DNA from: Bacteroidaceae bacterium
Lineage (GTDB): Bacteria; Bacillota; Clostridia; Oscillospirales; Acutalibacteraceae
DNA length: 64,000 nucleotides
Direction: 5' to 3'
Assembly: GCA_963600825.1 (NCBI GenBank)
Contig: CAVCCW010000001.1
Coordinates: forward strand, 4,841 to 68,840
Below are positions 22,620-47,788 of this stretch, piece by piece. Made by a program: the position numbers and the translations under genes. Position 1 is the stretch's first letter. The number at the start of each line of letters is the position of its first letter. The notes under the pieces were generated by a model. It searched no databases, was not told where the DNA came from, and saw only the letters and a program-made list of their open reading frames with translations.

Positions 22620-22702
22620 GTACATGATATATCCGATTTTATCGGAAACTTTTGGTTAGAATTTACAGTATTAAAAATCCCAAGACCAAGGAGGAATCAA
22701 AC

Positions 22703-24769
22703 ATGAAAACCTATAGTTCAGCCAACATACGAAACATTGTGGTAGCGGGTCATGCCGGCAGAGGTAAGACCTCACTGTGCGAAGCCATGCTTTATGTAGC
22801 AGGGGCAACCGATCGTCTCGGAAAAATAGCCGACGGCAGCACAGTCATGGACTATGACCCGGAAGAAAAGAAAAGACTCGCCAGTTTGCAGAGCGCTGTA
22901 GCAAGCCTTGAATGGAATGACGTCAAAATTAACTTAATTGACACTCCTGGTCTTTTTGATTTCGCCGGCGGTCTTTCCGAAGGCGTGCGTGCAGCAGGCT
23001 GCATGATGATTGTAACGGATGCAGAAAAAGCCAAGTATGATGTTGGGGCCGAAAAGGCCTTTGCCGCAGCCGAAGACAGAAATCTGTCCAAGATTTTTGT
23101 CATTAATAAGACGGATGCGGAAAACGCCAATTTCGGCAATCTGTTTGAAGAGCTGAAAGCCATCCACGGCAACAAGCTTTGCCCGGTCGTAGTACCGTTT
23201 ATTGAAAACGACCGCATTAAGTGCCTGGTTAACTTTTCACAGAACAAAGCTTATGAATATCACGACGGCAAAGCCGTTGAAGTGGATATGCCGTCTTCCG
23301 AAAAGTTGGACGCCATGCGGGATATGTTCCTGGAAGCCGTTGCCACAACCGATGACGACTTAATGGAAAAGTATTTTAACGGAGAAGAGTTTACAGAAGT
23401 AGAAGCCCTGACCGGCCTGCTTGCCGGTGTTACCGAAGGCTCCGTTTATCCGGTTTACGCCTGCTCCGCAACCAAGCTGGAAGGCATAGATCTTTTGCTG
23501 AAGGGCATTGTTAACCTTGGACCATCTGCTTCTTCCAAGACCGGCGAACTTGCCGTAGATGAAGACGGAAATGAAGTCCAGGTTCCTTGTGATGACAAAG
23601 CGCCGCTTGCCGCCATTTGCTTTAAGACTATTGCAGACCCGTTCGTTGGCAAACTGTCTTATCTGAAAGTCATTTCCGGTAAGCTGACGGCAGAAAGTGC
23701 AGCCTATAACCCACGGACCGGAGAAATGGTAAAGATGGGCAAGCTGGTTGCGCCACAGGGCGGAAAACAGACCGATATTAAAGAAATCAGTGCCGGAGAT
23801 ATCGGCATTGTTACCAAGCTGGCCGGTGTTAAGACCGGAGACACCCTTTGCGATCCAAAGCACATCCTTACCCTGAAGGGCCTGTCGTTGCCGGTGCCTG
23901 TTTACACCAGAGCGGTTACTGCCAAGAAGAAGGGCGAAGAAGAAAAAATTGCCCAGGGCCTGTTGCGTCTGTCCGAAGAAGATCCAACCATTAAATTCTA
24001 TACAGATCCGGAAACCAAGGAACAAATCCTGGCCGGCCTTGGAGAACAACACGTTGATATTATTGTTGGCAAGCTGAAGAGCAAGTTTGGTGTAGAAATG
24101 AACCTGGCTGCGCCGAAGGTTGCTTACCGGGAAGCCATTCGCAAGAGTGTTTCCGTTCAGGGTAAGTACAAGAAGCAATCCGGTGGTCATGGTCAGTACG
24201 GAGACGTTTGGATTCGCTTTGAGCCATGTGATGCCGAAGGCCTGGAATTTGCAGAAGAAGTCTTTGGCGGATCTGTTCCACGGAACTTCTTCCCGGCAGT
24301 AGAAAAGGGTTTACAGGAATCTATCAAGCACGGTGTGCTTGCCGGATATCCAATGGTTGGCCTGAAAGCGGTTCTGTATGATGGCTCTTACCATCCGGTA
24401 GACTCGTCTGAAATGGCATTTAAGACCGCCGCTTCCTTTGCGTATAAGGAGGGTATTCCGAAGGCAGCACCGGTTATCCTGGAACCGATTGTTACTTTGA
24501 CGGTTGACGTTCCGGATGACAACATGGGTGACATCATGGGAGACATTACGAAGCGTCGTGGCCGTGTTCTTGGCATGGAGCCAATTGACGGTCGTCCCGG
24601 TATGCAGCGTTTGGTAGCAGAAGTTCCGGATGCGGAACTGTCCGACTTCTCAACCATGCTTCGCTCTACCACCAAGGGTCGTGGCTCCTTTACCAAGGAA
24701 TTTGCCCGGTATGAAGATGCTCCACAGAATGTGGCAGAAAAAATTATTGCAGAATCCAAAGCAGAATAA
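22703..24769 (+). CDS. elongation factor G paralog (translational GTPase family) with degenerate switch motifs
   Basis: 688 aa from the ATG behind an AGGAGG RBS. G1 GHAGRGKTS, G3 DTPGLFDF, G4 NKTD. EF-G domains II-V are recognisable. Confidence 0.85.
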   Translation: MKTYSSANIRNIVVAGHAGRGKTSLCEAMLYVAGATDRLGKIADGSTVMDYDPEEKKRLASLQSAVASLEWNDVKINLIDTPGLFDFAGGLSEGVRAAGCMMIVTDAEKAKYDVGAEKAFAAAEDRNLSKIFVINKTDAENANFGNLFEELKAIHGNKLCPVVVPFIENDRIKCLVNFSQNKAYEYHDGKAVEVDMPSSEKLDAMRDMFLEAVATTDDDLMEKYFNGEEFTEVEALTGLLAGVTEGSVYPVYACSATKLEGIDLLLKGIVNLGPSASSKTGELAVDEDGNEVQVPCDDKAPLAAICFKTIADPFVGKLSYLKVISGKLTAESAAYNPRTGEMVKMGKLVAPQGGKQTDIKEISAGDIGIVTKLAGVKTGDTLCDPKHILTLKGLSLPVPVYTRAVTAKKKGEEEKIAQGLLRLSEEDPTIKFYTDPETKEQILAGLGEQHVDIIVGKLKSKFGVEMNLAAPKVAYREAIRKSVSVQGKYKKQSGGHGQYGDVWIRFEPCDAEGLEFAEEVFGGSVPRNFFPAVEKGLQESIKHGVLAGYPMVGLKAVLYDGSYHPVDSSEMAFKTAASFAYKEGIPKAAPVILEPIVTLTVDVPDDNMGDIMGDITKRRGRVLGMEPIDGRPGMQRLVAEVPDAELSDFSTMLRSTTKGRGSFTKEFARYEDAPQNVAEKIIAESKAE

Positions 24770-24773
24770 AAGA

Positions 24774-24802
24774 AGGCCTCCGGCAAGTTGCCGGAGGCCT
24801 TT
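24774..24802. terminator. bidirectional intrinsic terminator
   Basis: AAGGCCTCCGGC-AAGTT-GCCGGAGGCCTT with T-runs on both strands. Confidence 0.8.
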
Positions 24803-24812
24803 CAATTTTTGT

Positions 24813-25577
24813 TTAGTCTGCTTTTAAAATGGCTAAGTTCTTTGCAGATTGTTCTACGTTATGGGAATAAACGTGGGAAAGGTCAATCATGTCATACACC
24901 GTGATAGGGTGTCCGCGTTTGGACCACCGCGCAAAGCACATTAAATATAAGAACTTTAAACTGCGAAGGGTTAAGAGGCGTTCAATGGCTAAATCGCCAT
25001 CCTGATACGCATCCAGGGTATAACGGAAGAAAAAGTAGGCGCCAAGGCGGCGGAACCACTGGTTAATCTGATCCCCCTGCTGCTCCTTGAAGAGCACTTG
25101 GGCGGAGTAGTAGTCCGGGCGACGAAGCAACAGCTTTACGGCGTGCACGGCTTTGGCCCAGTCTTCGCTTAACACTTCCATAGAGTCCATGCGGTCCCGC
25201 AATTGAAGATTGGTTTCGTCCAAGGCAAACAAGTCTTCCAATGGGCTTTGTGGGTCTAACGCGGTGGAAACCAGTTGGTCACGAATGTCCCGCAGGTCAT
25301 CCAATTTGGCGTCTCCGGTGCTTAGGTCCGTGTCTCCGGTTACTTGGAAAGAGGCGTCTGGTCCGAAAAACAGATGGCCGACTTCCATGCAGGAAAGACT
25401 GAGGTCCATTTGCTCATAGTTGCCAATGGTTAGAACAGATTGTGGGAAACTGGTTACCAGGTGGGTCATGCCTTCATTTATGCCGGCGTCGTTTCCGGGA
25501 CAGTGATATTCCAGGCAGTTTTCTCCGGCACAGGTAAATTGTTCGGCGTATTGTGGATACTCTCTCATTCTTCTCAC
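24813..25577 (-). CDS. FliB-family (CxxCxxCC-domain) paralog, truncated and Cys-depleted
   Basis: 254 aa. Shares the N-terminal EYPxY..F.C.G..C, the Y.Q.DLSLSC core and the C-terminal FRY..LYLM.F..W..VE motifs with the upstream paralog. Lacks the second Cys cluster. Confidence 0.55.
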   Translation of the reverse strand: MRRMREYPQYAEQFTCAGENCLEYHCPGNDAGINEGMTHLVTSFPQSVLTIGNYEQMDLSLSCMEVGHLFFGPDASFQVTGDTDLSTGDAKLDDLRDIRDQLVSTALDPQSPLEDLFALDETNLQLRDRMDSMEVLSEDWAKAVHAVKLLLRRPDYYSAQVLFKEQQGDQINQWFRRLGAYFFFRYTLDAYQDGDLAIERLLTLRSLKFLYLMCFARWSKRGHPITVYDMIDLSHVYSHNVEQSAKNLAILKAD

Positions 25578-25601
25578 CGTACTTTTTTGGATTTTTGATG
25601 A

Positions 25602-26621
25602 TTAATTTTTGAAGGCGGCAATATTCTTGTCGTCATGCTCTACCTCTTTGGAATAGGTGTGGCAGAATTCCATGAAGTCCTGATTGGTCAGGTGGTATTC
25701 CGCTACCGGACCGGTTTGGCCGGCTTTTTGTTCTCCGGCCCACCAGTGGGAAAAGGCCATAAGATATAACAGGCGCATGCTGCGACGCATCATTTTCAGA
25801 CCGCAGACCGGGCTGTCATCATAATAGGAATCCGGGAAATACCGGAAAGCCAGATACATACTGATCTTTTCAAAGTTCCGCTCCAGAATTTCCTGATTGC
25901 GCCAAAGGAAAAGGGCTTCCAGGTTTTCATTGATATGCGGAAGAAGTTCTTTCATCTGCTTCATTTCCGCGGCCCAACGCGGATCCCATGGGTCTTCGTC
26001 TTTCAATAGCTTTAAAAGGGCTTCATTGCTTTCTTTCGGCAGGCGTTTGCCGATTAAAACATATTCCTCTACCTGCGCAATACGCTTTGGCAAGGGAAGA
26101 TCCGTTTTTCCGAGAATGGCCAGAGCTTTATCCCGTACTTCCAGACAGGTAGTAAAGTCTATGTCATCCAAATAGGATTCTGTCAGGTAGGCGGGATTTT
26201 CCTTCTCCTGCCGAATGACAGAAAAACGGAAGTCGTCCCGGAAGAACAGCCGACTGGCTTCCGGGCAGGAAAGACTTAAGTCATACTGCCGATAATCAGC
26301 TACTTCTACCACAAAACGCGGATGTTCGGCGCAGGTGCGGCAAAGACGGTTTTCTCCTAAATGCAGAATGATATCACACAGGTTTTGCTCATTTAAAAAC
26401 GGGCAGCGCCCCTTTTCTGTCAAGGGAAAAACGGCGTCTCCGTCCGGGGTTTCCGCAATATGGGAACGGATGACGTCCCCAAACGGAGCGGGTGCAATTT
26501 CCTGATAGTAGGTTAGGGCGTCTTCGTCTAAATCTACTTCCCAACCGGCACAGCAGGTTTCGGGACAATCTCCGGCGATACAGTGAAACTCCGGATAATA
26601 ATTAGGGTATTCAATGACCAT
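25602..26621 (-). CDS. FliB-family Cys-rich protein (flagellin lysine-N-methylase-like, 8-Cys metal-binding domain)
   Basis: 339 aa. FHCIAGDCPETCCAGW plus GRCPFL..NLC..RLCRTC gives eight conserved Cys. 11-nt overlap with pepD. Confidence 0.6.
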   Translation of the reverse strand: MVIEYPNYYPEFHCIAGDCPETCCAGWEVDLDEDALTYYQEIAPAPFGDVIRSHIAETPDGDAVFPLTEKGRCPFLNEQNLCDIILHLGENRLCRTCAEHPRFVVEVADYRQYDLSLSCPEASRLFFRDDFRFSVIRQEKENPAYLTESYLDDIDFTTCLEVRDKALAILGKTDLPLPKRIAQVEEYVLIGKRLPKESNEALLKLLKDEDPWDPRWAAEMKQMKELLPHINENLEALFLWRNQEILERNFEKISMYLAFRYFPDSYYDDSPVCGLKMMRRSMRLLYLMAFSHWWAGEQKAGQTGPVAEYHLTNQDFMEFCHTYSKEVEHDDKNIAAFKN

Positions 26622-28083
26622 GGTTAAGACTCAATTCTGCCAGAACCTTGGTCAAAAGGGAATAAAAGCGGGCTAAGGAATCCAGCGGCATTTTTTCATC
26701 TGGGGTGTGGACGTGGAATAAATCAGGGCCGACGGACACGGCATCCAGGCCGTCCATGGCGCTGACCAGCAGGCCGGTTTCCAGGCCGGCGTGTAAGGCT
26801 TCTACCTTCATGTTCTTTCCGAACAGGGATTGGTATGTGGAAAGGATGCAGTCCCGGAGCGGGGATACTTCCTGGTACGCCCAGCCGGGATACCGGCCGG
26901 AAACCTCCATGGTGAAGCCGAAGGCTTCCGCAGCAAGGCGGATGCGGTTTAAAGCTTCTTCTTCCAGGGAGTCCACGGAGCTGCGGGCCATGCAGGCGTA
27001 GGTGCAGCTGGCATCATCTGTACGAACAATTCCTAAGTTGGAAGAGGAAACAACCGCGCCGTCCAGCTGCGAATTCCGTGAAAGGACGCCATTCGGCGTC
27101 AGCAGAATGGCGCTGGCAAGGGCCTGCCCGTCGGCCGCTGTCATGGCATAGACCTGGCGGTCTTCCTGAAGGCAGAAGTGGAATTTAAAGTCCGGTTCCT
27201 GCGGACGGATTTCGTCATGATAGTTGTTGCGTAAATGCTCCAGCATGGCAATGGCACGGTCTGCGGAGTCCGAGGTGCGGTACAGCACCGTGGCGGAGCA
27301 CTCCCGCGGAATGGCATTGTCCATGCCGCCACCGTTAAAGTCAACCAACTGAACGTAAGGATTGTCGGCAAAGAGGTTGGACAAGGTACGAGCCATTAAC
27401 AGAATGGCGTTGCAGTGGTTTAAGTCTATGTCTGTTCCGGAGTGGCCGCCCAGCAGGCCCTCAATGGTAATGCTGATGAGGAAGCCCTGCGCTTCATGGC
27501 GCCGAATGGCGCGGGTGGTGTCTACTCTTGCACCGCCGGCGGAACCGACAACGCAGATGCCTTCTTCTTCGGAGTCCAGATTGATTAACTGGGTGCTTTT
27601 TAGCCAGGTGGGACTTACTTTGGAAGCACCAAGCAACCCGATTTCTTCTCCTGTGGTAAACAGGCATTCCAGTGGCGGATGGGTTATCTCTTTGTCTTCC
27701 AGAATGGCCAGCATCATGGCCACGGCAATGCCGTCGTCTGCTCCAAGGGTGGTTCCGTTGGCGGTCAAAGCGCCGTCCTGAATTTGCAATTCAATGCCGT
27801 CGGTTTGAAAGTCATGGGAACAGGTGGATAATTTTTCACAGACCATATCCATGTGTCCTTGCAGTGCAAGGAATGGAGCGGTTTCTCCGCCGTTTTGGCC
27901 CGGTTTGCGAATCAGCACATTCAGGGCTTCGTCCTGCATGGCTTCCAATCCATGGTCCTTTGCAAACTGCATCAGAAAATTGCTGATGCCGGCTTCGTTT
28001 CCGGAGCCTCTTGGGATGGCAGAAATCTGTTCAAAAAAAGATAAAACATTGGCCGGTTCCCGTCCGGCGAATAAGTCTGTCAT
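26611..28083 (-). CDS. pepD: aminoacyl-histidine dipeptidase (M20 family, PepD-like)
   Basis: 490 aa with PepD-type N-terminus (..FEQISAIPRGSGNE..), HMDMV metal site and GEEIGLLGA motif. Confidence 0.85.
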   Translation of the reverse strand: MTDLFAGREPANVLSFFEQISAIPRGSGNEAGISNFLMQFAKDHGLEAMQDEALNVLIRKPGQNGGETAPFLALQGHMDMVCEKLSTCSHDFQTDGIELQIQDGALTANGTTLGADDGIAVAMMLAILEDKEITHPPLECLFTTGEEIGLLGASKVSPTWLKSTQLINLDSEEEGICVVGSAGGARVDTTRAIRRHEAQGFLISITIEGLLGGHSGTDIDLNHCNAILLMARTLSNLFADNPYVQLVDFNGGGMDNAIPRECSATVLYRTSDSADRAIAMLEHLRNNYHDEIRPQEPDFKFHFCLQEDRQVYAMTAADGQALASAILLTPNGVLSRNSQLDGAVVSSSNLGIVRTDDASCTYACMARSSVDSLEEEALNRIRLAAEAFGFTMEVSGRYPGWAYQEVSPLRDCILSTYQSLFGKNMKVEALHAGLETGLLVSAMDGLDAVSVGPDLFHVHTPDEKMPLDSLARFYSLLTKVLAELSLNHGH

Positions 28084-28117: not shown

Positions 28118-29287
28118 TTAAAAGGAAAGGGTATTGACCTTTTCTGTTAATTCTATAATTTGATCCCGGTAAAACGCAATCAGTGCCGGGCCTTCCGGCT
28201 GGTTCTGCAGGCGGCGGATAGAGCGCCGCAGTAACCGGGTATAACCAAGCAATTTTGCTTTGTTTTCCTCTTCTTCTAAAATAACCGGATCCTTGGTTTC
28301 GAAGTATTCTTCCAGGGTTCGTTTCCAGAAAGTACCGGCAAGTTCCCATGGAATGCCAAGAAATTCGTCAGTTACGCTGTGGTTCAGTGCAGAAAATCCG
28401 CGGAATGCATTAAAGATAGAGGCAAAGTCAAAGACCGGAGCGCCGTAAGACAGCGTGTCCATATCAATCAGGATGGGTTCTCCGTTCTGGAGCATGACGT
28501 TGCGGGTATGGTAATCTCCGTGGATCAGATGGTGATCTTCCGGAATGGCTTGTACCAGGGCATGTAATTTTTCCCAGGTTTCTGCCGGAAGGTGCTCCTT
28601 CAGGAAGTCTACCCAACCCATAACCACGGCTTTTTCATCTGGAAAATCTTCCGGGGAAACTTCGGTGGCATGGATTTGTTTTAACAGACGCACAAAAACC
28701 TGTAAATAGTCTTCCAGGTTTTCCGGATGGGCCTTTAACAGTTTACTAAGGGATTTGGCGGACAGCAGTTCAAAAACAGAACCGTAGCTGTTGCCGACTT
28801 TTACTACATCGTACGGGATGGCGGTATTAATGCCGGATACAAAGGCTTTGCGAGCCAGCTCCCGCTCATTTTGAATTTCCGGAAGTGCATCCGGATTGCG
28901 ATATACTTTGACAACGGTTTCCGGGTCAATCCGGTAAACCAGGCCGTTGGAGCCCTGACCGATTAACGTACAGCCTTCTACAGACAACTGGCGATACGCT
29001 TTTTGTACGGGCAGCATTTCCGTAAAACCGGTCATTTCCAAAATGTCATACACTTCAGGGGAAGCGTTGATTATTTGCAAATCCGGATGATCCTTCCGGA
29101 GACGCAGTATAACACGCAGTCCGGCACTGGAAATGTAAACCAGGGCTTCGGCGTCCAGAATATAGGAAAGGCCCGGATTAGCATCTATGACCTTTTTGCA
29201 GTCTGCTTCCACAGCGGCAGCGTTATTGGTGTCAATGCGCCCTTCCAGGCAGAGGTAGAGGGTATCGTTTTCCTGATAGGTTTTCAT
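28118..29287 (-). CDS. STAS domain fused to a protein-kinase-like (APH/ePK-fold) domain
   Basis: aa 1-95: STAS with VYISSAGLRVIL. aa ~105-389: Gly loop IGQGSNGLVY, VVKVY lysine, catalytic HGDYHTRN and metal-binding IDMD. Confidence 0.7.
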   Translation of the reverse strand: MKTYQENDTLYLCLEGRIDTNNAAAVEADCKKVIDANPGLSYILDAEALVYISSAGLRVILRLRKDHPDLQIINASPEVYDILEMTGFTEMLPVQKAYRQLSVEGCTLIGQGSNGLVYRIDPETVVKVYRNPDALPEIQNERELARKAFVSGINTAIPYDVVKVGNSYGSVFELLSAKSLSKLLKAHPENLEDYLQVFVRLLKQIHATEVSPEDFPDEKAVVMGWVDFLKEHLPAETWEKLHALVQAIPEDHHLIHGDYHTRNVMLQNGEPILIDMDTLSYGAPVFDFASIFNAFRGFSALNHSVTDEFLGIPWELAGTFWKRTLEEYFETKDPVILEEEENKAKLLGYTRLLRRSIRRLQNQPEGPALIAFYRDQIIELTEKVNTLSF

Positions 29288-29313
29288 AAACGGGGCGTCC
29301 TTCCTGACATAAA

Positions 29314-29877
29314 TTAGTCGTGATGAAAGATTTCGTGCACCAGCTGCAGGTATTCCTGATAGGCATCGGTATCTGCCAGTTGGTTTGTATATTCTGCAAT
29401 GCTCTCATAATACCATTGTTGCATGGCAGGGTCCTTTTGGTTGAAGTGTGCCCACAGGGCATCTCCTTCCGCGCGGTAGGAGCGGGCGTAGGAGCGGAGA
29501 TTGGCAAGCTTGTCACTAAGCCATAAAATTTTGATGTCTCTGTCAGTGGTCTGCTTTAAATCCTGTAAGGATTCCTTTTTCCGGATTTGCCAGGTGTCTT
29601 CCGGCGGGCGGTCCTGCCGCTTGTCTTCCGTTTCACTCTTGACCAGTTCATAAACGCGTGGGCCGAATTTTTCCTGGATTTCTTCCAGGGAGACACCGGC
29701 GTCTTCTACTACATCGTGGAGAACGGCGGCAGCCAACAACTCCTGATTATTGGAAATAGTGGATGCAATGGAAGCAACCTCCAGCGGATGAAGAATGTAT
29801 GGGGAATAGGAAAGTTTTCGTGTCATGCCGGCATGCTTTTCCGTGGCAAAGTAAATTGCCTGATCTAATAAATCCAT
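29314..29877 (-). CDS. HD-domain protein, RelA/SpoT-type (p)ppGpp hydrolase-like (small alarmone hydrolase-like)
   Basis: 187 aa. ..EKHAG..R....PYILHPLEVA....AAAVLHDVVEDAGVSLEEIQEKFG..V..LV matches the SpoT/Mesh1 hydrolase core. No synthetase domain. Confidence 0.7.
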   Translation of the reverse strand: MDLLDQAIYFATEKHAGMTRKLSYSPYILHPLEVASIASTISNNQELLAAAVLHDVVEDAGVSLEEIQEKFGPRVYELVKSETEDKRQDRPPEDTWQIRKKESLQDLKQTTDRDIKILWLSDKLANLRSYARSYRAEGDALWAHFNQKDPAMQQWYYESIAEYTNQLADTDAYQEYLQLVHEIFHHD

Positions 29878-29887
29878 AAGTCTGCTG

Positions 29888-31915
29888 TCAAATCCTTTTC
29901 TGTAAAGTTAAGATATTCTGACCGTCTTTTTGCTGGTAGGACAAGTCATCCATGGTTTTCTTAACCAGGAAGATGCCGAGTCCGCCAACGGTACGGTCTT
30001 CTGCACTCTGACTGAGGTCCGGTTCATCCCGATCTAACGGGTTAAAAGGAATGCCGCTGTCTGTAAATTGCAGACTGAAGACGCCGTCTTTGTAGCGGGT
30101 TCCCAATGTAATATTTCCGGATTGCCCAATATAAGCATAGTGCGCAATGTTTACGAAGACCTCTTCTGCTGCAAGGGAAATTTGCATGGCGTCTTTGGGA
30201 CTGCAGGGGGTCTTTTCCAACGCCTGCTCTACAAAGGCAATGGCGGAGGCCAGTTCCGCATCCGAGGCGGGGAAGGTTTGTTCGGAGAAGTCTGTATTAT
30301 GGGCGGCTTTGCGGAATTCCATCAGGAGCATGGTAATGTCGTCAAACTGTGCAGCGTTTCCGGCAAAGGTGGCCAGTTCCTGCCGCAGGTTCAGAAGGAG
30401 ATCATAAATGTCATCTCCGCCGTGCTGTGTCAGATAGGCGGAAAGCCGATCCGGTCCATACAGTTCATTGGCTTCATTCATGGTTTCAGTAACACCGTCG
30501 GTGTATAAGAACAACCGGTCTCCCGGATTCATGTGCATGGTGCCCAGTTTGTATTTCATTCCGTCCATGGCACCAAGCACCAGGCCTGGACGATTCTTCA
30601 CATACCGGAAAACACCGTCTTTCTGCCGGAGCAGTGGCGGGGTATGACCGGCATTGGCATAATGCAGTTCGCCGGTTTCCAAATCCAAAACGCCCATCCA
30701 CGCGGTAACAAAGTATCCGGTGTCATTGCCTTCACACAAAGTGTGGTTCATCCGTGTAAAGACTTCATTCGGTTCCAGCCCGGATTGGGCGTGATTCTTC
30801 ATTAAAATTTTGGCAATGACCATGAACAGGGCAGCGGGAACGCCCTTGCCGGAAACGTCTCCAACTGCAATTGCCAGGTGTTTCTGGTCTACCATATACA
30901 TATCATAAAAGTCACCACCGACCTCTTTGGCCGGTTCCATGGTGGCAAAAATGGAAAACTCATCATGCTCCGGGAACGGAGGGAAAATATTTGGCAGCAT
31001 GTTGGCCTGAATGTCCGTGGCAATGCTGAGCTCGGCGCTAATCCGTTCTTTTTCCTTTAGAGAGTCCACCATCTGGTTAATGCTGTTGCCGATGTGCCCC
31101 AGCTCATCTTTGGAGTTCATTTCCAACGGCTCTTCCGGGAATTCGCCGGAGCCGACTTCGTCCAGATAAGAATCTATGCGGGCCAGGCTTTTGCTCCATT
31201 TTGCCGTGCGATTCAGAATTAAGGCAAAGGCCAAAAGTAACATGATTCCAAGGAGCAATAACAGTCCCTGTTTCAGATTCTTGGTGGCATTTTCCAGTTC
31301 GGAAACTTCCCGGCCGGCTACCAGAATGCCAATGGTGTTGCCTTCGGCATCATAAATACAATGGTAATAACAGTAAACCATATTTCCTGCTGCATTGGCC
31401 TGGCCGGAGAAGTAGCCGTCTTTGTCCAGCGTATCAGCAACGGTCTTATCAATATAAGTGCCAACGATAACTTTACCGTTCATATCTTTAGCAGAACCGG
31501 CAACGCGGATATAGTGCCCTTGCTGATATCCTGTTTTCTTGTCTCCGACCCAGGTTAGTTCGTCATCATTGTCGGTTTTCATGAACACATAGGAAAAGGA
31601 CCCGGTTTTTTGCTGTAATTTCTGGAACGGTTCGGTGTTGGCGTCTTCCAGGGTTCCGTTGCCAAGACGAACGGTTCCTTTATAAATGTAACCGTCCTGA
31701 ATGGACCAGTCCCCTTCACCAATTAAATCAGAAAGGTATTCCAGGTTAGATTGCAACTGCTCGGTCATGAGTTCTTTTTCCTGCTGGTCTACCACATAGG
31801 TAACTGCAATGGAAATACTGGTATACAGAATGGCGCCGCAGATCAGAACAATCAGAAGCACTTTGGACGCCACAGTATGCAATTTAAAGAAGGATTTTAA
31901 TTTCTCTTTGTTCAT
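29888..31915 (-). CDS. membrane sensor: TM / Cache-like / TM / HAMP / PP2C (SpoIIE) phosphatase / RsbW-type HATPase kinase fusion
   Basis: 675 aa with two TM helices flanking a ~190-aa periplasmic-type domain. PP2C motifs GGDFYD, GDVSGKG, YTDGVTE, FDDITML. C-terminal N-box EEVFVNIAHYAY, DSGIPFNP, GGLGIFL. Confidence 0.8.
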   Translation of the reverse strand: MNKEKLKSFFKLHTVASKVLLIVLICGAILYTSISIAVTYVVDQQEKELMTEQLQSNLEYLSDLIGEGDWSIQDGYIYKGTVRLGNGTLEDANTEPFQKLQQKTGSFSYVFMKTDNDDELTWVGDKKTGYQQGHYIRVAGSAKDMNGKVIVGTYIDKTVADTLDKDGYFSGQANAAGNMVYCYYHCIYDAEGNTIGILVAGREVSELENATKNLKQGLLLLLGIMLLLAFALILNRTAKWSKSLARIDSYLDEVGSGEFPEEPLEMNSKDELGHIGNSINQMVDSLKEKERISAELSIATDIQANMLPNIFPPFPEHDEFSIFATMEPAKEVGGDFYDMYMVDQKHLAIAVGDVSGKGVPAALFMVIAKILMKNHAQSGLEPNEVFTRMNHTLCEGNDTGYFVTAWMGVLDLETGELHYANAGHTPPLLRQKDGVFRYVKNRPGLVLGAMDGMKYKLGTMHMNPGDRLFLYTDGVTETMNEANELYGPDRLSAYLTQHGGDDIYDLLLNLRQELATFAGNAAQFDDITMLLMEFRKAAHNTDFSEQTFPASDAELASAIAFVEQALEKTPCSPKDAMQISLAAEEVFVNIAHYAYIGQSGNITLGTRYKDGVFSLQFTDSGIPFNPLDRDEPDLSQSAEDRTVGGLGIFLVKKTMDDLSYQQKDGQNILTLQKRI

Positions 31916-31933
31916 GGTGCGTCCTTCCTTGTC

Positions 31934-32230
31934 TTAAACAATGGTAAGAATGTCCGAAAAGCCGGTCATATCCAAAATGTCCCGGACGGTGCTGTTGACA
32001 TGGGTCAGAGTTAAGGAACCGCTCCCGGCAAGCTGCTTTTGTGCTGTCAGCAAAACACGCAATCCGGCAGAGGAAATATAATCCGATTCTGCAAAATCCA
32101 AAACCAGTTGATTGCTCTTTTCCAAAGCACGGTTAATTGCTGCGGAAAGCTCCGGGGAGGAAAGAGTGTCTAATCGCCCGGAAAGGGCAAGGGCAATGGT
32201 GGCTCCGTTTTCCGTTACAACGATGTTCAT
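31934..32230 (-). CDS. STAS-domain anti-sigma-factor-antagonist-like protein (RsbV/SpoIIAA family)
   Basis: 98 aa with conserved DYISSAGLRVLL phosphorylation motif and C-terminal DILDMTGF. AAAGGAG RBS. Confidence 0.85.
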   Translation of the reverse strand: MNIVVTENGATIALALSGRLDTLSSPELSAAINRALEKSNQLVLDFAESDYISSAGLRVLLTAQKQLAGSGSLTLTHVNSTVRDILDMTGFSDILTIV

Positions 32231-32322: not shown

Positions 32323-32357
32323 AAAGACCACGCAACTAACATAGTTGCGTGGTCTTT
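32323..32357 (-). terminator. intrinsic terminator after the tRNA pair
   Basis: 16-bp stem AAAGACCACGCAACTA/TAGTTGCGTGGTCTTT followed on the minus strand by a T-run. Confidence 0.8.
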
Positions 32358-32359
32358 TG

Positions 32360-32434
32360 TGGTGACCCGGACGGGAATCGAACCCGTGTTACCGCCGTGA
32401 AAGGGCGGTGTCTTAACCGCTTGACCACCGGGCC
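32360..32434 (-). tRNA. tRNA-Glu (anticodon UUC), CCA encoded
   Basis: Reverse complement GGCCCGGTGGTCAAGCGGTTAAGACACCGCCCTTTCACGGCGGTAACACGGGTTCGATTCCCGTCCGGGTCACCA folds as a cloverleaf. Near-identical to Bacillus tRNA-Glu. Confidence 0.92.
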
Positions 32435-32437
32435 ATT

Positions 32438-32514
32438 TGGTAGCGGGAGTAGGATTTGAACCAACGACACCCCGGGTATGAACCGAGTGCTCTAGCCAAC
32501 TGAGCTATCCCGCC
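32438..32514 (-). tRNA. tRNA-Met (anticodon CAU; elongator type most likely, Ile2-lysidine not excluded), CCA encoded
   Basis: Reverse complement GGCGGGATAGCTCAGTTGGCTAGAGCACTCGGTTCATACCCGGGGTGTCGTTGGTTCAAATCCTACTCCCGCTACCA. Anticodon loop TTCATAC. One U-U mismatch in the T stem. Confidence 0.85.
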
Positions 32515-32533
32515 ATGTGTTAAAGCAAGAGTC

Positions 32534-32563
32534 ATTATAACGGAATCATATATGACTTGTCAA
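32534..32563 (-). promoter_or_regulatory. near-consensus sigma-A promoter for the tRNA-Met/tRNA-Glu unit
   Basis: TTGACA, 18-nt spacer, TATAAT on the minus strand. The -10 ends about 19 nt before the mature tRNA-Met 5' end. Confidence 0.6.
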
Positions 32564-47478: not shown

Positions 47479-47788
47479 TTTTAGGCACGTGAATTGGGCG
47501 TGTTGCGCCCAAAATCACGCAGAGATATGCGAAGATGCGGGAGGTGGCCGTCCCCGAGACGGGAAATTTCCGCGGAGTATGTCCGATTTTAAACCGGGCG
47601 AAACAAATAACGGCAAATCAATCTGACTCGCAAAAGATTGAACTGCCATGCTGTTTTGTCACCCGAAAGCAGAGCTGCTCACGAGCTTTAGCCTTCAGGT
47701 TTTTTAAATACTGACTGGGGAAACGCCCGGTTGGGTTTATAAAAGCAGCAATAAGCCCGCCATACTTATCACTCTAGGAGGAGTAAAA

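Follow-up and report, generated by a model that had tools for sequence, protein, structure and literature searches.

A partner-switching module of gut anaerobes that may control a kinase-hydrolase enzyme pair rather than a sigma factor

What does a partner switch regulate when no sigma factor is encoded beside it? This question is raised by a run of minus-strand genes in the window (the whole 64-kb stretch of DNA analysed), whose first four members encode a STAS protein, a membrane phosphatase-kinase, an HD hydrolase-type protein, and a STAS domain fused to an APH-type kinase fold. The original prediction was that the output of this module is enzymatic, i.e., the kinase-fold domain and possibly an alarmone hydrolase. 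We found no literature on this four-gene module, and PADLOC returned no match for it.

RESULTS

Gene organization of the locus

ORF calling recovered seven minus-strand ORFs at exactly the coordinates that had been predicted, with intergenic gaps of 18, 10, 26, 34, -11, and 24 nt from the first to the seventh gene. The genes and the flanking hairpins are as follows.

32323-32357, minus strand: intrinsic-terminator-like hairpin directly after tRNA-Glu (16-bp stem, then a T-run)
31934-32230, minus strand: free STAS protein, 98 aa (ORF, Pfam/NCBIfam)
29888-31915, minus strand: membrane sensor, 675 aa (ORF, Pfam)
29314-29877, minus strand: HD_4 hydrolase-type protein, 187 aa (ORF, Pfam)
28118-29287, minus strand: STAS-APH fusion, 389 aa (ORF, Pfam)
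26611-28083, minus strand: PepD-like M20 dipeptidase, 490 aa (NCBIfam TIGR01893, 493 bits)
25602-26621, minus strand: FliB-like flagellin lysine-N-methylase paralogue, 339 aa (NCBIfam NF038110, 203 bits)
24813-25577, minus strand: FliB-like flagellin lysine-N-methylase paralogue, 254 aa (NCBIfam NF038110, 44 bits)
24772-24802, both strands: bidirectional terminator-like hairpin (13-14 bp stem, a T-run on each strand)

The upstream hairpin is predicted to end the tRNA-Met/tRNA-Glu unit located at 32360-32514 and to delimit the transcription unit of the module on its 5′ side, whereas the downstream one is its predicted 3′ boundary, common to a convergent EF-G-like gene. The gene run, its spacings, and both terminators were thus borne out by the ORF and hairpin checks. 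The seven genes are not conserved as a unit: the PepD and the two FliB-like genes adjoin the module in its two closest relatives only (93-96% identity) and are lineage-specific passengers outside the conserved module, which is limited to the first four genes.

A free STAS protein and a membrane phosphatase-kinase with intact motifs

All domain calls of the original prediction passed the curated Pfam/NCBIfam cut-offs. The free STAS protein (type A) scored 59 bits against Pfam STAS and 65.6 bits against TIGR00377. Its DYISSAGL motif places Ser54 at the phospho-acceptor serine of SpoIIAA and RsbV in an alignment with PDB references 1auz, 1th8, 1tid, and 6m36, and SSAGL is present in 47/47 free STAS homologues. 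The sensor, also encoded on the minus strand, combines sCache_3_3, HAMP, SpoIIE/PP2C (182 bits), and HATPase_c_2 (83 bits) domains, arranged as follows.

Residues 11-42: transmembrane segment 1 (hydrophobic segment)
Residues ~76-216, nt 31268-31690: extracytoplasmic sCache (Pfam)
Residues 213-238: transmembrane segment 2 (hydrophobic segment)
Residues 241-288, nt 31052-31195: HAMP (Pfam)
Residues 344-534, nt 30314-30886: PP2C/SpoIIE (Pfam)
Residues 548-673, nt 29897-30274: RsbW-type HATPase_c_2 (Pfam)

The phosphatase and kinase motifs expected in this protein were all found, at residues 333, 352, 471, 524, 584, 619, and 644. Homologues keep the PP2C metal-site residues D335, D353, D473, and D525/D526, as well as the kinase residues E585, N589, D619xG621, and G644-G647. 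The best solved relative of the PP2C-HATPase half is the phosphatase-kinase fragment of Rv1364c (3ke6, E=4e-12). Sensor inputs are interchangeable across relatives of the module: sCache, dCache_1, 5TM-5TMR_LYT, and further multi-TM regions all occur, and some sensors lack an input domain.

An APH-fold kinase and an RSH-type hydrolase as candidate effectors

The STAS-APH protein exceeded the cut-offs for both of its Pfam domains (APH, 78 bits; STAS, 42 bits), which divide it as follows.

Residues 3-96, nt 29000-29281, minus strand: N-terminal STAS, type B (Pfam)
Residues ~97-389, nt 28121-28999, minus strand: APH/eukaryotic-like kinase fold (Pfam)

Alignment A1 revealed invariant S53 and S54 in the type B STAS domain and an entire catalytic set in the APH domain (G110xG112xxG115, K127, E141, H256-G-D258-x4-N263, and D275-x-D277). 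The top Foldseek matches of the AF2 model (pLDDT 91.8, pTM 0.75) were the small-molecule kinases APH(4)-Ia, APH(2''), MTR kinase, and FN3K and the phosphotransferases of macrolides and capreomycin, at ~15% identity and TM of 0.5-0.64. With ~600 or more matching stretches at 53-61% identity in a one-genome-per-species collection, the protein anchors a large family.

The 187-aa HD protein consists of a single Pfam HD_4 domain (79 bits, over cut-off). Invariant residues, taken from alignment A2 (20 sequences), comprise R20, H30-P-L-E-V, H54-D-V-V-E58-D59, and D122-K-L-A-N126-L-R128, and are followed by a C-terminal family-specific motif, FNQKDPxxxxWYY. Its PDB sequence matches include 4yf1 (Lmo0812, 2e-22), 7qoe (2e-21), 7qoc, Rel hydrolase domains, and Mesh1 (best-match E values from 2e-22 to 5e-15). 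TIGR00691 aligned over profile positions 1-121 only. The closest solved relatives, the C. glutamicum and L. levettii RelH enzymes, hydrolyze (p)ppGpp in vitro (PMC9293644). By its motifs, the protein is a predicted RelH/MixSpo-like small alarmone hydrolase (SAH).

Conserved neighborhoods and natural fusions

Co-occurrence of the four genes across Clostridia was found, with the order shuffled; the same content recurs in Erysipelotrichia-like and Spirochaetia MAGs. The following counts derive from the best-scoring 80 loci per scan, mostly phylogenetically non-independent MAG contigs with unreliable taxon labels. Among 55 well-flanked genome loci, STAS-APH has nearby an RsbW-like HATPase in 39 (71%), a free STAS in 36 (65%), HD_4 in 36 (65%; directly upstream on the same strand in 33), and PP2C in 31 (56%). 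All four partners are present in 17/55 and none in 3/55. The four parts are not obligatorily linked, because 13/55 loci have HD without a nearby HATPase and 16/55 show the reverse. In the reciprocal scan, an APH kinase lies directly downstream of HD in 32 of 45 HD-family metagenome loci (71%). HATPase (odds ratio 13.7, p=1e-4) and PP2C (p=2e-4) each tend to accompany the free STAS, whereas HD shows no such association with it (p=0.55); the free STAS goes with the kinase/phosphatase regulator, not with the hydrolase. The recurrence of this gene set across dozens of divergent genomes makes a chance arrangement highly improbable. The four-gene cassette occurs in hundreds of gut anaerobes.

Natural fusions join every part of the module. 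The Pfam-confirmed HD_4-APH fusion accounts for at least 120 clusters, STAS-HD_4 for 3, and an HD-degenerate STAS-APH fusion also exists; STAS, APH, and HATPase are fused in both orders (STAS-APH-HATPase and HATPase-STAS-APH). Other phosphoesterase folds are joined to the same kinase in STAS-APH-PHP and HD-CE-STAS-APH proteins, although the PHP, HD-CE, and PolyA_pol fusions are each known from one cluster representative and may be gene-calling or assembly artefacts. Catalytic residues are common to the STAS-APH and HD-APH kinase subfamilies. These fusions therefore point to a hydrolase-kinase enzyme pair as the functional core. As judged from genomic context, kinase and hydrolase are adjacent, or fused as an HD-kinase protein, across hundreds of genomes; the pair is also found without STAS or partner-switch genes, which would thus be a regulatory add-on to it. 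The predicted enzymatic output is strengthened by the HATPase-STAS-APH, STAS-APH-HATPase, STAS-HD, and HD-STAS-APH proteins and by the large HD-APH family. Involvement of the hydrolase was upheld, but as half of a conserved pair rather than as a mere possibility.

DISCUSSION

Proposed mechanism and alternative explanations

We favor, at a probability of roughly 55%, a sigma-factor-independent partner-switching module with an enzyme pair as output. Cache, HAMP, a PP2C phosphatase with intact catalytic residues, and an RsbW-type serine kinase reside on one membrane protein; the canonical phospho-acceptor serine (Ser54) occurs in two STAS domains, one free and one on the APH-fold kinase; the hydrolase gene sits between the sensor and STAS-APH genes; and across relatives an RsbW-like kinase adjoins the STAS-kinase or is fused to it. 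Binding of an extracytoplasmic ligand by Cache would shift the balance between the kinase and phosphatase activities of the sensor, and this balance would set the phosphorylation state of both STAS serines. The free STAS and the STAS-kinase may compete for the HATPase domain, thereby forming the switch, and the state of the tethered STAS would turn the APH-fold kinase on or off. The APH-fold kinase would work with, and probably against, the small alarmone hydrolase. Most speculatively, both enzymes would oppose each other on one phosphorylated, probably nucleotide-like substrate, one making what the other breaks, much as the synthetase and the hydrolase do in Rel/SpoT; in a minimal version, kinase output would be linked through this pair to the degradation of (p)ppGpp.

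A conventional switch, in which the sensor HATPase is the anti-sigma of a SigB/SigF-like factor encoded elsewhere and HD and STAS-APH are cargo or extra substrates, is rather unlikely. The three canonical regulator parts are all present and intact, Rv1364c is sigma-linked, and the sigma search was confined to the 64-kb window and related loci. However, as predicted, neither a sigma factor nor a stand-alone anti-sigma is encoded in the operon, and none was found in the 64-kb window; no sigma-like family or stand-alone anti-sigma occurs among recurrent neighbors in 80 related loci. Furthermore, the HATPase forms part of a membrane-bound sensor, direct fusions of RsbW-like domains to STAS-APH have been found repeatedly, and the weak likeness to the NCBIfam RsbW and SpoIIAB equivalogs falls far under cut-off (28.6 versus 145 and 16 versus 135 bits).

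A stronger, yet still doubtful, competitor retains the enzymes but not their common substrate: HD would be a plain (p)ppGpp/(p)ppApp hydrolase and APH, similar to YihE/SrkA or to CotS-type enzymes, a Ser/Thr protein kinase that phosphorylates the hydrolase or another protein, so that alarmone degradation is tuned by protein phosphorylation. The HD motifs and closest solved relatives are those of bona fide alarmone hydrolases (PMC9293644, PMC10434055), kinase-substrate pairs are often adjacent or fused, and weak NCBIfam/PDB matches link the kinase to protein-kinase-type APH folds (PRK11768, CotS/CotI, YtaA 2q83). Against this, the top Foldseek neighbors are all small-molecule kinases, fusions to the unrelated PHP and HD-CE folds fit a shared substrate more easily, and no conserved candidate phospho-site was found on the HD protein. 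The Pfam family and the resistance kinases among the best Foldseek matches could instead suggest a kinase for xenobiotics or antibiotics (aminoglycosides, macrolides, or peptide antibiotics), with its expression or activity under stress control, beside unrelated stress functions. This is very improbable: every NCBIfam resistance APH model scored 16-19 bits against cut-offs of 205-725, conservation across hundreds of anaerobe genomes is housekeeping-like, the GC content (0.485) matches that of the surrounding window (0.486), and the kinase is tightly linked and fused to the RSH-type hydrolase and STAS. A functionally meaningless juxtaposition in one genome is refuted by recurring gene content in divergent lineages, shuffled order, and multiple independent fusions. 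Overall, the interpretation originally proposed, that of a partner switch acting on enzymes, is supported.

Comparison with known systems

The module resembles the RsbU/RsbV/RsbW-sigmaB and SpoIIE/SpoIIAA/SpoIIAB-sigmaF switches of Bacillus in its STAS antagonist, HATPase_c_2 serine kinase, and PP2C/SpoIIE phosphatase, all with intact motifs, and its STAS phospho-acceptor aligns to SpoIIAA S58 and RsbV S56. Unlike these switches, it has no sigma factor in the operon, window, or related loci, it carries kinase and phosphatase on one membrane polypeptide behind Cache-HAMP, it has a second STAS domain on the same chain as an enzyme, and its conserved neighbors are enzymes. Rv1364c of Mycobacterium tuberculosis, a SigF-linked protein, has a PAS input and a STAS domain of its own in cis. 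The sensor shares its phosphatase-then-kinase order on a single chain (3ke6), but is a membrane Cache-HAMP protein with STAS domains in trans. SypE/SypA of Vibrio fischeri likewise combines an RsbW-like kinase and PP2C on one protein, which sets the phosphorylation of a STAS protein acting on a target other than a sigma factor; however, SypE is a cytoplasmic protein with its domains in reverse order and a receiver at the center, and SypA is a single-domain STAS, whereas the STAS of the module is covalently joined to a presumed APH-fold effector, with a hydrolase in addition. Other sigma-independent switches include BtrU/V/W (PMC8256260) and HenR-STAS in Anabaena (PMC13555669).

As in SiaA/SiaB/SiaC/SiaD of Pseudomonas aeruginosa, a membrane HAMP-PP2C sensor and a kinase would set a small switch protein, which in SiaABCD activates a nucleotide second-messenger enzyme, a diguanylate cyclase, rather than a sigma factor (PMC8457831). 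The output proposed here is instead an APH-fold kinase with an RSH-type HD hydrolase, and the NCBIfam SiaA match is weak (E=8e-17; score of 61 versus a cut-off of 700). The hydrolase itself resembles the RelH/MixSpo group (C. glutamicum RelH 7QOD, L. levettii RelH 7QOE, Listeria Lmo0812 4YF1) and Mesh1 in being a single HD domain of ~190 aa with all hydrolase motifs. SAHs are otherwise known as orphans or as antitoxins that counteract toxic synthetases (PMC9765508, PMC7229694); unlike them, this subfamily adjoins an APH-fold kinase (71% of loci) or is fused to it, an association for which we found no report for any SAH in the literature. The fused HD-APH relatives are reminiscent of long RSH enzymes (Rel/SpoT), with an N-terminal RSH-type HD followed by a phosphoryl-transfer domain on one chain, in a make-and-break layout; their second domain, however, has the APH/eukaryotic-like kinase fold, not that of the RSH nucleotidyltransferase-fold synthetase, and they contain neither TGS nor ACT domains. 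Finally, in CapK/CapS an RsbW-like kinase that senses ssDNA phosphorylates the STAS-like domain of a non-sigma effector, CapS, a DNA-binding repressor of defence operons (PMC13373217), whereas the module described here adds a PP2C phosphatase and a membrane sensor, and its effector is a putative enzyme.

Operon layout and genomic surroundings

ORF analysis located the seven minus-strand genes exactly where the original prediction had placed them, with successive spacings of 18, 10, 26, and 34 nt, an 11-nt overlap, and a final gap of 24 nt. Both bounding terminators were likewise borne out, i.e., a hairpin at 32357-32323 right after tRNA-Glu and a bidirectional hairpin at 24772-24802. The module and its surroundings comprise the following features.

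28118-32230, minus strand: four-gene module encoding, in this order, a free STAS protein (98 aa), a Cache-HAMP-PP2C-HATPase sensor (675 aa), an HD_4 hydrolase (187 aa), and a STAS-APH fusion (389 aa)
24813-26621, minus strand: tandem FliB-like flagellin lysine-N-methylase paralogues (NF038110, 203 and 44 bits)
32360-32563, minus strand: tRNA-Met/tRNA-Glu pair with its promoter, a perfect consensus TTGACA-18-TATAAT at 32563-32534
22652-24769, plus strand: EF-G-family GTPase paralogue (705 aa), convergent with the operon and sharing the bidirectional terminator at 24772-24802
47524-47601, plus strand: S10-Clostridia ribosomal protein leader (Rfam RF03136, 42.7 bits), ahead of a large ribosomal protein operon

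At 0.485, the four-gene block has the same GC content as the window (0.486), so nothing marks it as an island. The window derives from an uncultured member of the Clostridia, an origin with which the S10-Clostridia leader agrees, as does the L2 protein, whose cluster carries the label "Clostridia bacterium". Downstream, the FliB-like pair, whose second member matches the C-terminal part of the NF038110 profile only, stands after a PepD-like dipeptidase gene in one transcription unit. These three genes had to be dropped from the conserved unit, because, among the best 80 related loci searched, L001 and L002, the two closest relatives, were alone in having them beside the module.

Upstream, the tRNA unit ends in its strong terminator ∼90 nt ahead of the first start codon of the module. 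A promoter scan of this 90-nt gap called none, though TATAAT-like hexamers are visible, so transcription that starts at the tRNA promoter and reads through may account for part of the module's expression. A functional tie to the tRNA genes was rejected, since any tRNA lay within 10 kb in just 12 of 54 related loci, at inconsistent positions. At Rfam gathering thresholds the window yielded three tRNAs and the S10-Clostridia leader only, with no riboswitch or leader RNA (e.g., a ppGpp riboswitch) ahead of the operon. An anti-phage defense reading was also discarded, as none of the four proteins had a PADLOC match at E ≤ 0.01.

A predicted partner-switching regulator without a local sigma factor

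Every predicted domain scored above curated thresholds in Pfam and NCBIfam profile searches. In the 98-aa protein, which consists of a STAS domain (59 bits in Pfam; TIGR00377 at 65.6 bits, above cut-off), Ser54 lines up with the serine that is phosphorylated in SpoIIAA and RsbV, and also with a position held by Ala, not Ser, in chain 1tid_B. Of the homologous STAS domains, all 47 free ones and 75 of 78 fused ones have the SSAGL motif. These sequences form two clades, one of free and HD-fused STAS domains (type A) and the other of APH-fused ones (type B). One STAS-HD fusion (P0121; L078 9070-9978) carries the STAS loop YISPDGIG, and this STAS may act without phosphorylation, because Pro stands at the position aligned with the phospho-acceptor serine.

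Pfam matches place both a kinase and a phosphatase in the single polypeptide of the sensor, which consists of sCache_3_3 (residues 123-212), HAMP (241-288), SpoIIE/PP2C (344-534, 182 bits), and HATPase_c_2 (548-673, 83 bits) domains. The Cache domain lies between two hydrophobic segments (residues 11-42 and 213-238) and is thereby positioned outside the membrane. Among 38 sensors, the metal-binding aspartates of the PP2C domain (D335, D338, D353, D473, D525, and D526) were at least 95% conserved, and homologues also preserve the kinase boxes (N box, E585 and N589; G1 box, D619xG621; G2 box, G644-G647). The inputs mounted on this common PP2C-HATPase core are, as judged by domain content, interchangeable: sCache in the window, and dCache_1-HAMP, 5TM-5TMR_LYT, other multi-TM regions, or none in relatives.

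The regulator half hence has three of the four defining features of a canonical Rsb/SpoIIA switch; the fourth, a cognate sigma factor encoded alongside, is missing. Pfam and NCBIfam revealed no sigma domain in the seven operon proteins, and the precomputed Pfam annotation of collinear contigs, which covers window positions ∼1 to 60,600, lists no Sigma70-family domain. Judged by ORF size and position, the rest of the window beyond ∼60,600 holds no sigma-like ORF. When the ORFs lying up to 7 kb from the fusion gene at 80 loci were clustered, no sigma-like family stood among the recurrent neighbors. The claim that the switch lacks a local sigma factor thus held for the operon, for the window, and for recurrent genes of these loci.

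The hydrolase and the APH-fold kinase

The 187-aa protein matches HD_4 (79 bits over residues 7-148) and carries all RSH hydrolase motifs (R20, H30-PLEV, H54-DVVE58-D59, and D122-KLAN126-LR). Within a 20-sequence alignment of the family, R20, H30, H54, D55, E58, D59, D122, and N126 were invariant. Its best solved relatives are Lmo0812 (4yf1, 2e-22) and the RelH proteins of L. levettii (7qoe) and C. glutamicum (7qoc), all of them small alarmone hydrolases (SAHs) of the RelH/MixSpo group (PMC9293644, PMC10434055). Both RelH enzymes hydrolyse (p)ppGpp in vitro (PMC9293644, PMC10434055), and SAHs are promiscuous, with (p)ppGpp, (p)ppApp, and NADPH as substrates (PMC9765508). With a single HD domain, the hydrolase motifs, and no synthetase domain, the HD protein classifies by sequence as a member of the SAH group, whose expected activity, Mn2+-dependent hydrolysis of (p)ppGpp or (p)ppApp, has been demonstrated for the two RelH enzymes (PMC9293644) and would be predicted here. 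Membership in the long RSH (Rel/SpoT) family was ruled out: no RSH synthetase domain was found in the module, and TIGR00691 scored 75 bits, far under its cut-off of 499, over profile positions 1-121 only.

The 389-aa protein joins a STAS domain (residues 3-96) to a domain of the APH/eukaryotic-like kinase fold (Pfam PF01636; residues 107-296, 78 bits). Its kinase active site is complete and invariant in 25 homologues (G110xG112xxG115, K127, E141, H256-G-D258-x4-N263, and D275-x-D277). A confident AlphaFold2 model (pLDDT 91.8, pTM 0.75) matched APH(4), APH(2''), and MTR kinase with a Foldseek probability of 1.0. As modeled, the closest solved folds of the kinase domain are small-molecule kinases, at ∼15% identity: APH(4)-Ia, APH(2''), methylthioribose kinase, the macrolide, capreomycin, and amicoumacin kinases, and fructosamine-3-kinase. 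The reading as an antibiotic-resistance kinase was rejected on distribution and on the NCBIfam scores of the resistance models (APH_3p, 19.4 versus 205 bits; APH_6, 16.4 versus 325; APH_4_Ia, 15.9 versus 725). The kinase is related to the Fibrobacter paralogous kinase-like family TIGR02172 (107.6 bits, E = 8e-31), yet falls outside the 228.2-bit cut-off of that model.

Conservation and gene neighborhoods

A one-genome-per-species scan for the STAS-APH protein gave at least 599 confirmed stretches. Each of the 8000 candidates scored was significant, and the top 120 share the STAS+APH architecture, at 56 to 100% identity. The kinase domain alone retrieved 480 clusters (50% identity) at E ≤ 1e-30, with a STAS domain in 119 of the best 150. 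The STAS-APH family is thus very large, and it is concentrated in gut and rumen anaerobes. Several "cleanbin" records (L001, L002, L004-L006, L017, and others), titled Muribaculaceae, Paludibacteraceae, Bacteroidaceae, Alloprevotella, Segatella, and similar taxa, carry the Clostridia-type module at 58 to 95% identity; they are likely mislabelled or chimeric bins, which makes their organism names unfit for describing taxonomic distribution.

We examined neighborhoods to 7 to 10 kb around the gene at the best-scoring 80 loci of each scan, which are mostly MAG contigs and not phylogenetically independent. Searches with the seven window proteins showed that the four module genes recur widely. In the 55 loci with enough flanking DNA for neighbor counts, the STAS-APH gene had an RsbW-like HATPase nearby in 39, a separate STAS in 36, an HD gene in 36 (immediately upstream on the same strand in 33 of these), and a PP2C in 31, the PP2C + HATPase_c_2 architecture also being counted in 31. 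All four partners were near in 17 of the 55 loci and none in 3. Gene order varies, with the free STAS upstream of the sensor, between sensor and HD gene, or directly downstream of the fusion gene, as would be expected under selection for gene content. Unbiased clustering of ORFs within 7 kb at the 80 loci revealed no further widely shared family. An alpha/beta-hydrolase (Abhydrolase_1, 53 bits) lies inside or beside the module in 15 of the 80, and at one locus (L059 11490-12326) it stands between free STAS and sensor. In the reciprocal test from the HD family, on metagenome contigs with at least 1.3 kb downstream of the HD gene, an APH kinase directly followed this gene in 32 of 45 loci.

Natural fusions and two sub-modules

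Natural fusions, as read from domain matches, connect every pair of parts. HD_4-APH proteins of ∼480 to 495 aa that lack STAS make up a large separate family, in which at least 120 clusters, from MAGs of Ruminococcus, Lachnospiraceae, and Ruminiclostridium, have PF13328+PF01636 without exception. Their kinase domains share with those of the STAS-APH proteins the catalytic residues plus further conserved positions, among them S102, G105, C106, R119, R146, T155-A-I157, and R351, which suggests one orthologous activity. The contexts of these autonomous fusions differ, with no conserved partner and no partner-switch genes. In one lineage, the HD-APH gene is directly preceded by a tandem array of three to four paralogous genes, each for a 125-aa protein without a Pfam match (L151 3812-5872; L171 3747-4947).

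STAS-APH, STAS-HD, and HATPase-STAS-APH fusions, together with synteny, are what suggests that the STAS output may act on a target other than a sigma factor. STAS-HD_4 proteins form three divergent clusters, each encoded between a PP2C-HATPase sensor and a STAS-APH gene. An RsbW-like domain is fused to STAS-APH at either end (L074, P0373, P0390, and P0362), and one representative protein consists of HD_4, a degenerate STAS, and APH. In three cluster representatives (P0426, P0377, and P0419), STAS-APH is joined to a PolyA_pol/CCA-adding-type nucleotidyltransferase head, a PHP phosphoesterase, or an HD-CE domain; these are single representatives, and rare fusions may be artefacts. If real, the architectures would hint at a nucleotide or RNA-3'-end substrate.

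Fusions of type A STAS to HD and the frequent order STAS-HD-fusion gene had raised the idea that the free STAS is a dedicated partner of the HD protein. Across these phylogenetically non-independent loci, however, the free STAS went together with HATPase (odds ratio 13.7, p = 1e-4) and PP2C (p = 2e-4), and no such association was seen for the HD gene (p = 0.55). A free STAS also persists at loci that have a STAS-HD fusion, and the dedicated partnership was therefore rejected as a general rule. The resulting picture is one of two sub-modules, namely an effector pair of HD hydrolase and APH-fold kinase that is able to stand alone and a plug-in regulator.

Proposed mechanism and alternatives

The regulator (sensor-PP2C-HATPase and free STAS) would plug into the effector pair via the STAS domain on the kinase. 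Input through Cache-HAMP would tilt the sensor toward kinase or phosphatase activity on Ser54 of both STAS domains, and the free STAS would compete with the STAS-kinase for the HATPase domain. The APH-fold kinase would then be gated by the phosphorylation or binding state of its tethered STAS. In the most speculative step, kinase and HD hydrolase would oppose each other on one phosphorylated, probably nucleotide-like, substrate. We propose this step because the HD-kinase fusions have a Rel/SpoT-like architecture, the kinase resembles small-molecule kinases and is found joined to more than one phosphoesterase fold, and the RSH-type active site is retained.

Taken furthest, this reading makes the kinase and the RelH-type hydrolase the synthetase and hydrolase of a previously unrecognised phosphorylated nucleotide signal, a second, evolutionarily independent make-and-break enzyme of the Rel/SpoT kind; we give it about one chance in five. 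The signal might then be a 2'/3'-phosphorylated guanine or adenine nucleotide, or the reaction might be RNA 3'-end phosphorylation. Such an enzyme would be widespread in gut Clostridia, both as an autonomous HD-kinase fusion and as the split form of the window, wired to an extracytoplasmic sensor by a sigma-less partner switch. In the main rival explanation, the HD protein would do no more than hydrolyse (p)ppGpp, and the kinase would be a protein kinase acting as its regulator. The in vitro activity of the RelH relatives is in keeping with the first half of this proposal; the likeness to small-molecule kinases and the varied phosphoesterase fusions are what point us to a shared substrate instead. 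A conventional switch directing a sigma factor encoded elsewhere in the genome would suit the three canonical features of the regulator half; it is possible but disfavored, the operon, window, and neighborhood searches having returned no such factor. Overall, the comparative evidence supports and sharpens the original prediction of an enzymatic output. The module is best described from its genes as a partner-switching variant whose output would be a very widespread, uncharacterised kinase-hydrolase pair.

Significance and relation to known systems

Partner switching is a textbook means of freeing sigma factors; to our knowledge, only a handful of sigma-independent partner switches are known, with mostly obscure targets. 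Here, the probable target can be read from the protein itself, as its STAS domain has a kinase attached to it. This kinase also turns up again and again, within a very large, unstudied family, either next to an alarmone-type hydrolase or fused with one. Full-text literature searches found no description of the STAS-APH protein, the HD_4-APH protein, or this gene cluster. The module thus offers a testable route both to what sigma-less partner switches control and to the role of "orphan" SAHs where no toxic synthetase is present. If the substrate is shared, the pair would constitute a new on/off cycle, in nucleotide signalling or in metabolism, among the dominant gut bacteria, and the sensor inputs of this cycle (Cache, 5TMR-LYT, and others) could be paired with signals from host or diet.

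Like the Rsb/SpoIIA switches, the module combines a phosphorylatable STAS serine, a HATPase_c_2 kinase, and a PP2C/SpoIIE phosphatase; unlike them, it has no sigma factor encoded alongside, whether in the operon, in the window, or among the recurrent neighbors at the 80 loci. Though APH-fold, its kinase lies outside all curated resistance APH families. The PP2C-HATPase half of the sensor is closest to Rv1364c, and its predicted dual kinase/phosphatase activity in one polypeptide is a feature common to SypE/SypA. In its working, the regulator half would resemble the sigma-independent switches, namely SypE/SypA and BtrUVW (PMC8256260), SiaABCD (PMC8457831), HenR-STAS (PMC13555669), and CapK/CapS (PMC13373217).
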